In this document: in pieces, positions 28,544-31,011 of the stretch | Position numbering within the stretch: the first letter of the stretch is position 1 | Layout of the letters: each line of letters opens with the position of its first letter | DNA from: a virus | Lineage: Duplodnaviria > Heunggongvirae > Uroviricota > Caudoviricetes | IMG/VR virus record: IMGVR_UViG_2579778871_000002 | Length of the DNA: 63,419 bases | Strand: one strand, 5' to 3' | Translations under genes and position numbers: made by a program | The notes under the pieces: model-generated | The model's database searches: none | Told to the model about the DNA's origin: nothing | The model's input: the letters and a program-made list of their open reading frames with translations, nothing else

Positions 28544-30804
28544 AAGAGCTGTGCTATGGATCTGTTTGCAGTGGAATTGAAGCCGCGAGTATTGCCTGGG
28601 AACCGTTGGGTATGCGTCCGGTGTGGTTTGCTGAAATCGAGTCTTTTCCATCTGCCGTTCTTGCGCACCGCTGGCCCCATGTCGCCAACCTTGGCGACAT
28701 GACAAAACTTGCCAAAAAAGTCCTGGCTGGGGAAATCGAATCCCCTGATGTGCTCGTCGGGGGAACACCTTGTCAGGCATTCAGTATCGCGGGATTACGT
28801 GGTGGGCTTGATGATGAGCGTGGCGCGCTAACTTTAAAGTATGTGGAGCTTGCAAATGCAATTGACGACAAACGGGCTGAGTCATTTCTCAAACCAGCCG
28901 TTATCGTCTGGGAAAATGTCCCAGGAGTCTTGTCATCGGCAGATAACGCCTTCGGATGTTTCCTTGCCGGATTGGCTGGAGAAGATGTGCCATTTGAACC
29001 AGGTGATCGACCTGAATCAGGAAAAAGCAACGCGTTCTGGCGGTGGGATGGCAAAACCGGTTGCCATGTTCCAAAGTGGCCGCAGTGTGGTTGTATTTAT
29101 GGACCGCAGCGAAAGGTGGCCTGGAGAATCCTTGATGCCCAATACTTCGGAGTGGCACAACGACGCCGACGCGTGTTTGTTGTCGCAAGTGCTCGAACAG
29201 ACCTCGATCCCGCAACGGTACTTTTTGAGTTCGAAGGCGTGCGCCGGAATATTGCGCCGAGCCGAAAAAAGAAGGAAATCGCTTCCGCCATTACTGCAAA
29301 TGGCGCTGCAATCAGTGGCGAAAGCCTAAATCCATGCCTACACGCTGGCATGTCCCCCGGTATGAAATCGACGAAAGCCGTAAACGGTTTCAGGATGGCG
29401 GCATTTGGGGAATATATTGACGATGAAACCGCATCGACAGTAAAGGCAAGAGACTTTAAAGATGCCACTGACCTTGCCGTTTTTAGCAGCACTGGAGCAG
29501 GTTTTTGGTCAGAAGGGCATGGTACATTGCGGGCGCGTGAGCAAGAAAGCCATGAGCATCTTGTTACATTGGCTTTTCCTGAGCGTATGAGTGGTACACA
29601 ACATGCAGCAACTAAGAATACTTCACCATCTCTAATGGCTCAAAATCCAACTGCTGTTTGCTATGAAGTAAGAAACGAAGAAGTAGCTGTCCGCCGTCTT
29701 ACCCCTGTCGAATGTGAGAGACTTCAAGGTTTTCCTGATGGGCATACGTTGATCCCTACGGAAAAGCGTAAAAAAGTTAATTCAGATGAACTGGCATATC
29801 TGCACAATCACTATCCAGATTTAAGCGAAGAAGAGGCCGCGATGCTTGCAGCTGACGGACCGCGTTACAAAGCGATCGGCAATAGTATGGCAATACCAGT
29901 AATGCGCTGGATTGGCGATCGGATTACTAAGGCCGTATGTCGGCAGAAAGAAGGAAGTGAAACAAAAGAGCGAAAAGTTAAACCAGCGGCAGAATTCGAA
30001 CGGTCCATATTCAAATGGGCTGGTGGAAAATTTGGTGTTCTGGAACAAATCTTTCGCTATTTGCCAGAAGGGAAGCGCCTGATCGAACCTTTTGTCGGTG
30101 GCGGAGCTGTCTTCACGAATGCCGGATACCAGGAAAATCTGCTAAATGATGTGAATGCTGACCTGATTAACTTTTACAAGACTCTGCAACGCGAGGCGCA
30201 TTCACTTATCACACTGGCGCATCGGTTTTTCCAGGACTACAACACACAGGAAGGATACCTGGCAGTACGGAATGCGTTTAACAAACAAGTCTATGATGAT
30301 TTACATCGCGCAGCGGCGTTTTTGTTCCTGAACCGACATTGTTTTAACGGATTGACGCGTTACAACCAGGCCGGTGAGTTCAATGTCGGTTATGGGAAGT
30401 ATAAAACTCCGTATTTCCCATTACAGGAGATGGAAGCCTTCCTCGGTGCGGAAGGGCGTTCTGAGTTTGTATGTGGTGATTTTGCTGCGGTGATTGAAGC
30501 TGCCGGAGAAGGAGATGTCATCTTCTGTGATCCGCCGTATGAACCGCTTCCAAATACAGAGGGATTCACGAACTATTCCGGTCATGACTTTAAGTTTGAA
30601 GAGCAAAAACGCCTGGTGTCTCTGTTGACGGATGCTCATCGCCGAGGTGCAAAGGTTCTCATTACTAACAGTGGCGCGCCAAACATCAGAGAGCTTTATC
30701 ATGACAATGGCTTCAGAGTGGAACCTCTTTTTGCCAGACGTTCTGTGTCTTGTAAGGGGGACACTCGAGGTGTTGCTCATGACGTCTTAGGTATATTGCT
30801 CTAA
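28540..30804 (+). CDS. dmt: bifunctional DNA methyltransferase: N-terminal C5-cytosine MTase fused to C-terminal Dam-like N6-adenine MTase
   Basis: 754 aa; [12 protein letters not shown] (PCQ) and VWENVPGV (ENV) in N-half; PFVGGGAV (FxGxG) and CDPPY in C-half. Confidence 0.85.
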
Positions 30805-30822
30805 TAAATTTATTAGTGTAAT
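30795..30822. promoter_or_regulatory. C1 operator pair overlapping dmt stop codon
   Basis: ATTGCTCTAATAAATTT (17/17) overlapped by inverted partial copy TTTATTAGTG. Confidence 0.65.
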
Positions 30823-30985
30823 ATCGCCTCAATGAATCGTGATTTATAGAGCGATTTAGCTGTTAGCCGCGACAGGCGCGGCGGTAAGCATGGCTGGGCC
30901 TAGTCCTCCCAGACAAACCACCGAGTTGCCAGGTTGACCATGCGCCTAAGTGGCAACGCCGAAGTGCGTTACGAGCTTCCAGTTT

Positions 30986-31011
30986 GCCCATCTTCGGGTG
31001 GGCGTTTTTTT
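30986..31011 (+). terminator. rho-independent terminator
   Basis: GCCCATCTTCGGGTGGGC hairpin followed by TTTTTTT. Confidence 0.6.

Follow-up and report, generated by a model that had tools for sequence, protein, structure and literature searches.

The 3' end of the DNA methyltransferase gene dmt in IMG/VR virus record IMGVR_UViG_2579778871_000002 (63,419 nucleotides; this whole stretch is called the window below, and all positions refer to it) is overlapped by a two-part operator for the phage repressor C1. A short interval and an intrinsic terminator follow, and beyond these lie further RNA genes and the helicase gene ban (Table 1). The subject of this analysis is the unit between operator and terminator, which likely gives rise to a C1-controlled small RNA. 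Comparison of positions 30700-31700 with phage P1 (AF234172 / NC_005856) and with P7 gave identities of 99% and 96%, respectively, and judged by this identity the window is a P1-type phage. P1-like plasmids that carry this region number in the hundreds and come from Escherichia, Salmonella and Shigella. For P1, a textbook phage, knowledge of the Op72/Pban element dates back to the 1980s. None of the operator, the promoter and the label "dicF-like" is new: all three are annotated, the last as a 102-bp "dicF-like region" in AF234172 that corresponds approximately to window positions 30919-31020. Three points are new here: the "dicF-like" homology is assigned instead to a small-RNA scaffold of modular use, a seed specific to P1 accompanies this scaffold, and a neighboring element resembles transfer-messenger RNA (tmRNA).

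The operator, promoter and terminator

A first-pass annotation of the window, made from the letters alone, had placed a perfect operator with an overlapping inverted partial copy across the dmt stop codon, and a consensus scan found both copies exactly there, with the stop codon (TAA, 30802-30804) inside the perfect one. In the window as a whole, 12 C1 sites with at most 3 mismatches were found, compared with 0.34 expected. The P1 GenBank record lists the pair as Obanab (previously Op72ab), a divalent operator that "controls expression of ban", and according to the P7 record the equivalent operator also controls the tRNA genes. For the window, C1 binding and repression in vivo are presumed from this published P1 annotation. 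Since the P1 record annotates the same features, and since the arrangement is conserved in relatives (P7, SJ46, RCS47 and the hundreds of P1-like plasmids mentioned above, a check that the first-pass annotation had proposed), we do not consider the observed features to be due to chance.

The P1 record also places two promoters at the operator. The coordinates of P1ban were carried over from AF234172 68668-68696, where this promoter is not labeled "predicted". Promoter prediction, a second check that had been proposed, gave a divided outcome: a generic sigma-70 scan does not pick up P1ban, whose -35 hexamer matches at only 3 of 6 positions, while P1ban and P2ban are both annotated in GenBank. 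From the position of the -10 hexamer of P1ban, we infer a transcription start site near 30831. The strong terminator that the first-pass annotation had reported at 30986-31011 is indeed the best terminator-like site on the + strand in 30000-33600, and the local fold retains its stem (GCCCAUC/GGUGGGC, 30986-30992 / 30997-31003, with U7 at 31005-31011). That annotation had not recognized Op72/Pban, the structured and conserved RNA module within the 165 nt before the terminator, or the tmRNA-like element that adjoins it.

A leader shared with the DicF precursor precedes interchangeable cores

A distant DNA search showed that positions 30867-30961 are 75-79% identical to sequences of lambdoid phages (mEp460, cdtI, Stx2-converting phages and others). 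Among 5,426 complete E. coli genomes, 4,415 have prophage matches to this segment, which we call the scaffold. A K-12-type genome has its match in the interval from ydfC to dicB, with 24 nt separating the end of the match from the small RNA DicF, which was placed there with the Rfam DicF model (RF00039, 76.7 bits). The same model found no match in 30780-31480 at E <= 10, nor in 28000-35000 at E <= 1, whereas its positive controls scored 76.7 bits in the Qin prophage and 72-77 bits in three phages. Considering that the match ends before DicF, and that the DicF model misses P1, the homology seen at the sequence level is to the leader of the DicF precursor, and not to DicF itself. No Rfam family matches either the scaffold or the sequence behind it at E <= 10.

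We then sorted ~120 copies of the scaffold, taken from prophage and phage contigs, by their downstream sequence. In more than 100 prophage and phage loci, the ~95-nt leader always lies ~25 nt before a variable segment, the core, that ends in an intrinsic terminator. DicF is the core in most loci, and the remaining types are a cdtI type, a Salmonella F1055 type, an L008 type, several others and the P1 type. In other words, at least 8 different terminator-ended cores stand behind the same scaffold. P1 shows the same layout: the conserved blocks GGCGCGGCGGYAAGYAUGG and CAGGUUGACCAURCGC are present in its leader, and its core (30958-30985) and terminator (30986-31011) lie within ~30 nt of the scaffold. 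The distant DNA search found no similarity of this 28-nt core outside P1-like elements. P1 and P7 have the same core and the same terminator, even though hairpin 1 of the scaffold and its tail have been rewritten between these phages, with compensations.

More distant relatives retain the unit in part. Plasmid pMUB-MIN14-1 is without Op72 and retains scaffold, a shortened core, terminator and the tmRNA-like element, while phage D6 has the terminator and the downstream element only, without a C1-type operator and with a different upstream leader. The terminator is conserved in both, and in pMUB-MIN14-1 its stem shows a compensatory change. The length of the T-run ranges from 6 to 8 among relatives (6 T in the P1 reference and P7, 7 in this window, 8 in some viral contigs), a polymorphism that may tune how efficiently transcription ends and, through this, how strongly ban and the tRNA genes are expressed. 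As further observations on these relatives, pMUB-MIN14-1 (locus L489) has a D6-like upstream terminator joined directly to an intact scaffold, and D6 (locus L016, 740-1540) carries an apparent remnant of the DicF-type scaffold as well as a repeated GTGTTAGAAA motif ~750 nt upstream of the shared terminator, possibly an operator of its own.

To describe the structure of the scaffold, we used an alignment of 20 diverse copies (A1), in which 43 columns are invariant. Three helices are fixed in this alignment: helix Pa, a pseudoknot helix and hairpin 2. Of the cells in these helices, 97.2% are standard-paired, compared with 27-49% when the partners are slid. Each helix shows one compensatory double change, giving 3 pairs changed on both sides where 0.6 are expected, a number reached by 4 of 500 shuffles. 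The covariation evidence for the fixed helices is modest, because most of the changes separate the P1/P7 lineage from the rest. The sequence of hairpin 1 has been rewritten repeatedly, and it always folds at the same place with a pyrimidine-rich loop. On this comparative evidence, the scaffold is a conserved, compact, pseudoknotted RNA.

A likely C1-gated small RNA at the start of the ban operon

The Qin prophage provides the reference for a unit of this build. There, a stable 190-nt DicF species has its 5' end made by RNase III and its 3' end at the terminator, and RNase E turns this species into the 53-nt DicF (J Bacteriol 2023, PMC10448788). A 1,146-nt transcript ends at the DicF terminator, and a 1,608-nt ydfABC-dicFB-ydfD read-through transcript reaches dicB (PMC10448788).

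Our best explanation of the P1 locus, to which we give a probability of roughly 60%, is that it forms the start of the P1 ban operon and carries a C1-gated small-RNA cassette of the DicF type with a leaky terminator. In a lysogen, C1 on the bivalent Op72ab, which overlaps the -35 and -10 hexamers of P1ban, would block initiation. Once C1 is lost, polymerase would start near 30831 and make the ~95-nt pseudoknotted scaffold (30867-30961), the 28-nt core and the terminator. Most transcripts would stop at 30986-31011, giving a likely C1-gated RNA of ~180 nt, as calculated from the distance between the start near 30831 and the end of the T-run, which would be the counterpart of the 190-nt "long DicF" of Qin. 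By analogy with Qin, RNase E would trim this RNA to a ~50-nt Hfq-type small RNA consisting of the seed, the terminator hairpin and the U-tail, and because the seed differs from that of DicF, its targets should differ as well. In addition, late transcripts through dmt could give the same small RNA as a 3'-end product. These functional statements about the RNA are predictions from homology and sequence.

The first-pass annotation had offered two ideas about the unit: a C1-controlled small RNA, or an operator-dependent terminator readthrough switch into the tRNA region. The former gains support from homology, as the unit is built like the 190-nt DicF precursor. The latter finds no support as a switch: the operator overlaps the -35 and -10 hexamers and so gates initiation, and nothing ties it to a terminator ~190 bp away. 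Readthrough as such is nevertheless demanded by the layout of the operon. From 31011 to ban, the scan of 30000-33600 gave no sigma-70-like site on the + strand, and none is annotated, although the negative for internal promoters is weak evidence, as the same scan finds no promoter anywhere in that range and misses the known P1ban. Since scan and annotation both leave the downstream RNA genes and ban with no other promoter, and since the operator is stated to control them, the terminator would have to leak. A minority of polymerases would pass it, as at the DicF terminator, and continue into the tmRNA-like RNA, tRNA-Asn, tRNA-Thr, tciABC, tRNA-Ile and ban.

Published data on P1vir infection of an hfq mutant concern ban and its neighbors. 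Within the replication/processing module, over-expression at 20 min was confined to ban; trnA was up as well, and dmt was under-induced (bioRxiv 10.64898/2025.12.28.696737). The region of the small-RNA terminator is not discussed by the authors. This expression pattern would fit an action of Hfq at or near the small-RNA terminator of the ban operon. Two side observations concern genes of this operon. At 33434-33509 of the window, ARAGORN calls a tRNA-Met (CAT) where the P1 record has tRNA-Ile2 (ileX-like, with a lysidine-modified CAT anticodon), and at 32209-32328 (+), near the start of tciA, there is a sub-threshold Rfam match to the gammaproteobacterial small RNA STnc100 (38.7 bits, with a gathering score of 47).

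Several results weigh against a small-RNA cassette at this locus. The fold of the whole unit is not unusually stable (z = -1.7), and the covariation of the three scaffold helices amounts to few independent events. In an E. albertii plasmid the core is altered at a few positions and lengthened by a 4-nt insertion, and that of pMUB-MIN14-1 is shortened, so that a strongly selected seed is not proven. No target was predicted for the P1 core, and in duplex energies against ftsZ from -80 to +40 the P1 core and DicF itself were both no better than shuffles, making this a test without power. In the searchable literature we found no transcript data for the P1 region corresponding to 30831-31011, and the P1vir RNA-seq papers do not report the dicF-like/ban-leader region.

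Alternative explanations

Among the competing explanations, the one that survives best, although we consider it unlikely, is that Op72/Pban simply serves ban, that the 180 nt are a functionless untranslated leader, and that the hairpin and T-run mainly end late transcription from upstream hrdC-dmt and attenuate ban. A long operon does end directly before the terminator, no product of the ban operon other than ban has a demonstrated function (according to annotation and the bac/ban genetics), and some relatives have a variable or truncated core. A functionless leader is difficult to reconcile with a scaffold that remains 75-79% identical, with compensatory changes, across unrelated phage types and is always coupled to a terminator-ended core. 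Moreover, the homologous unit of Qin is a proven, stable small-RNA precursor (PMC10448788), and the P1 and P7 cores are identical despite the rewriting alongside.

The second explanation, which we regard as improbable, takes the scaffold as a cis-acting, polymerase-modifying antiterminator RNA similar to put of phage HK022, which would allow polymerase from Pban (or, in lambdoid prophages, from PL or dicBp) to pass the small-RNA terminator and later ones on its way to ban, dicB or kil. The scaffold is compact and structured, it invariably follows an early promoter and precedes a strong intrinsic terminator that has to be passed for the downstream genes, in several of its carriers nothing like an N gene was seen from the repressor gene to the scaffold, and the put RNAs hold the same operon position in HK022 (PMC9378689). 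However, the scaffold has no sequence similarity to the HK022 immunity region, a blastn-short comparison with HK022 24000-32000 giving only chance word matches, and put consists of two stem-loops with a triplex rather than a pseudoknot with three helices (PMC9378689). The wild type of Qin shows the terminated 1,146-nt transcript, and read-through accumulates only with RNase E inactivated (PMC10448788). The invariably tight linkage to a small-RNA core likewise fits the role of a precursor or carrier better.

A third explanation, highly improbable in our view, is that positions from 30883 onward are the 5' tRNA-like half of a single ~520-nt tmRNA-like gene (30883-31403), in which the "terminator" would be an internal helix. 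At a lowered threshold (-ps80, 80%), ARAGORN pairs CGGUAA (30883-30888) with UUACCG (31397-31402) beside a T-arm-like hairpin, and hairpin 1 together with the sequence behind it, 7-8 nt and then a conserved NCCG, bears a loose likeness to a T-arm with acceptor strand and NCCA. The two parts are distributed independently of each other, which goes most of the way to refuting this explanation: the scaffold occurs in more than 100 lambdoid loci without the tag-bearing element described below, and that element in D6 and many virulent phages without the scaffold. The proposed pairing has only a 6-bp stem, lacks G3:U70 and CCA, and reaches neither the ARAGORN default nor the Rfam gathering scores, and an internal hairpin with U7 would terminate transcription.

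Finally, the interval had been described as ~165 bp free of open reading frames, which is not literally correct (mechanical reading frames are 30863-31195 (-), 110 amino acids, and two of 32-33 amino acids on the + strand) but holds in effect, and the hardly credible alternative that the 110-amino-acid frame, apparently annotated as "hypothetical protein" under the match in JL22 and SJ46 (probably spuriously), is a gene is refuted by its frameshift in the P1 reference, by several stops in P7 and by a conservation pattern that is that of RNA helices.

The adjoining tmRNA-like element

Directly behind the terminator lies an unannotated element that we report as a putative tmRNA-derived tag-template RNA. 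The Rfam permuted-tmRNA models match it below threshold, with 24.1 bits in P1 and 27-33.5 bits in five unrelated phages, compared with a gathering score of 47 for RF04321. Homologous elements, likewise unannotated, lie in or beside the tRNA clusters of Ackermannviridae (phiEa2809, phiMAM1), N4-like phages (Bp4, KP8), Drexlerviridae (CS01) and many viral contigs. A published survey that covered ssrA exhaustively in RefSeq viruses contains tmRNAs of mycobacteriophages only, and none from P1-like or other enterobacterial phages (PMC4131195).

Positions 31068-31105, which contain the tag frame, read UAAAU-GCA AAC GAU GAU CUG AUG AUG GUA GCG GCC UAA. All 25 distinct versions of the 33-nt frame keep the 10 codons and the stop, for which UAA, UAG and UGA are all used. 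Entropy is 0.91 at the third codon position, compared with 0.54 at the first and 0.43 at the second, and identical peptides are written with different codons. This pattern indicates that the tag frame is under selection at the peptide level, with a hydrophobic-Ala-Ala end followed by the stop. In the hairpin after the tag, 3 pairs have changed on both sides, and stem 2 of the pseudoknot varies in a compensatory manner; covariation of stem 1 was judged by eye. The 5' end of the element, GGGUUUUCGUCAUGGUUAGCGACUUUGCGG, parallels that of genuine coding pieces of two-piece tmRNAs in viral contigs, GGGGCUGACAAGGUUUCGACAGGGCGA.

With regard to a tRNA-like domain, ARAGORN at its default settings found none, and regular-expression searches for a T-loop gave no consistent answer. 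For the invariant 5' GUUUUCG, no positionally consistent conserved partner was found across the family. Two candidates for the missing part were rejected. The ARAGORN -ps80 model discussed above borrows its CGGUAA from the DicF-type scaffold and cannot be general, and an unannotated tRNA-like module at 31632-31718 is carried only by P1-like loci and three others. This module follows directly after tRNA-Thr, antisense to the 3' end of plp, and has a closing stem of ~21 bp, a GCGACGUCGGAGAUCGC hairpin and a canonical T-arm at 31681-31698 (GAGGGUUCGAAUCCCUAC). The same module stands beside the tag element in three T1-like viral contigs (L276, L284 and L339) and is absent from most members of the family.

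A separate observation concerns long stems of the form ACAACAGGUAAGRGC... / ...GYRCUCUUUCCUGUUGU, which recur at 31191-31275, at 31632-31718 and at L003 1410-1496. In P1 and the T1-like contigs, RNA modules are enclosed by them. Qin has a stem of the same type just before its DicF scaffold, where the RNase III cut deduced from the 190-nt length of DicF would fall. Possibly, RNase III processes a polycistronic array of RNAs at such stems.

Table 1. Positions of the features at the 3' end of dmt and in the first part of the ban operon.
Feature	Positions	Strand	Basis or description
dmt (DNA methyltransferase) open reading frame	28540-30804	+	Open reading frame list; annotated as Dmt in P1 AF234172
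Predicted promoter P2ban	30779-30810		Annotated in the P1 record
C1 operator Op72a / Obana	30795-30811	+	Perfect 17-bp asymmetric consensus ATTGCTCTAATAAATTT, 0 mismatches; annotated
Sigma-70 promoter P1ban	30796-30824	+	-35 TTGCTC 30796-30801, -10 TAATAT 30819-30824, 17-nt spacer
C1 operator Op72b / Obanb	30806-30822	-	Inverted copy, 2 mismatches, 6-bp overlap with Op72a; annotated
Inferred primary transcript, ~180 nt	30831-31011	+	Promoter and terminator geometry; analogy with Qin (PMC10448788)
Predicted 5'-terminal stem-loop of the transcript (AAUCG.../...CGAUU)	30833-30858	+	Minimum free energy and centroid folds
Conserved scaffold, homologous to the DicF-precursor leader	30867-30961	+	75-79% identity to lambdoid prophages, where it lies directly 5' of dicF
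Helix Pa, CGGU/ACCG	30882-30885 / 30920-30923		Alignment A1
Pseudoknot helix, GYAUGG/CCAURC	30888-30893 / 30938-30943		Alignment A1
Hairpin 1	30894-30912		Re-formed by at least 8 different stem sequences
Hairpin 2	30925-30931 / 30951-30957		Alignment A1
P1-lineage-specific variable core GCCGAAGUGCGUUACGAGCUUCCAGUUU, presumed seed	30958-30985	+	Sits where DicF and the other cores sit
Intrinsic terminator	30986-31011	+	7-bp GC-rich stem, UUCG loop, G, U7
Unannotated tmRNA-like element	31014-31400	+	Starts 3 nt after the T-run; sub-threshold Rfam match, covariation, codon conservation
5' end of the tmRNA-like element			Reads GGGUUUUCG..GGUUAGCGAC
Possible long-range helix	31027-31039 with 31354-31366
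Tag frame GCA..UAA, ANDDLMMVAA*	31073-31105	+	No start codon
Hairpin after the tag	31114-31138
tmRNA-like pseudoknot	31155-31159 / 31169-31173 and 31164-31168 / 31185-31189
Long stem of the tmRNA-like element	31191-31275
T-arm-like hairpin	31378-31396
tRNA-Asn	31477-31552	+	Predicted and annotated; among the next genes fed by Pban
tRNA-Thr	31555-31630	+	Predicted and annotated; among the next genes fed by Pban

Implications

The RNA that would be made first from Pban has so far only been labeled a "dicF-like region". A likeness to the precursor scaffold changes the function to be expected of it, as there is no reason to assume that ftsZ is its target. A small-RNA cassette with a leaky terminator also accounts for the presence of a strong terminator 190 bp into a 2.6-kb leader. 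More generally, a structured carrier that is reused with interchangeable seeds across prophages offers a handle on how small RNAs of phages arise and diversify.

A wider interpretation, which we put forward tentatively and would sooner doubt than endorse, is that the leader of the ban operon is an array of phage RNA effectors and not a passive 5' UTR. It would combine a plug-in scaffold with swapped seeds, of which DicF is one of at least 8, and a decoded tag-template RNA that reprograms or hijacks trans-translation in the host. If this were true, a tag-template RNA without a canonical tRNA-like domain, common to P1-like, N4-like, Ackermannviridae-like and T1-like phages, might, for example, change the degradation tag that is placed on stalled proteins. 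Should it prove functional, such an RNA would give phages a new point of contact with ribosome rescue.

Comparison with known systems

The operator and promoter of the window do not differ from Op72ab (Oban)/P1ban of the P1 ban operon: sequence, position at the dmt stop codon, bivalent overlap and promoter hexamers are all identical. With the put RNA of HK022, a polymerase-bound antiterminator, the scaffold shares the position of a structured RNA just after an early promoter and upstream of terminators to be passed, but it has no sequence similarity to put and, by the published description of put, another architecture, so that the comparison is a mechanistic analogy only.

The tmRNA-like element shares the resume context UAAAU-GCA-AAC-GAU with two-piece (permuted) tmRNAs, and its 5' motif GGUUAGCGAC resembles the GGUUUCGAC of their genuine coding pieces. 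As in tmRNA, a tag of 10 codons of the form AN[DE]....A* without a start codon has its stop in a small hairpin and is followed by a pseudoknot. Unlike tmRNA, the element lacks a recognizable tRNA-like domain as well as G3:U70 and CCA, and its scores stay below the Rfam gathering and ARAGORN default thresholds.

The closest counterpart of the proposed small RNA is the DicF locus of Qin. Both loci have the homologous ~95-nt leader, the same order of scaffold, short linker, core and intrinsic terminator, a similar total length (~180 nt predicted for P1 and 190 nt in Qin), and a leaky terminator followed by further genes of the operon. The long species of ~180-190 nt and its processing by RNase E are demonstrated in Qin, and for P1 they are proposed by analogy. 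The core of P1 is unrelated to DicF, with no match to RF00039 at E <= 10 compared with 76.7 bits in Qin, and what follows in P1 are RNA genes and a helicase gene, not dicB. The two loci also differ in how the 5' end would be formed. In Qin, an RNase III-type stem of ~22 bp is predicted just 5' of the scaffold, and the length of the 190-nt species places the RNase III cut in the polycistronic mRNA at that site. P1 has a promoter at this position, so that its 5' end would be set by repressor-gated initiation, and Pban should directly make the equivalent of "long DicF".

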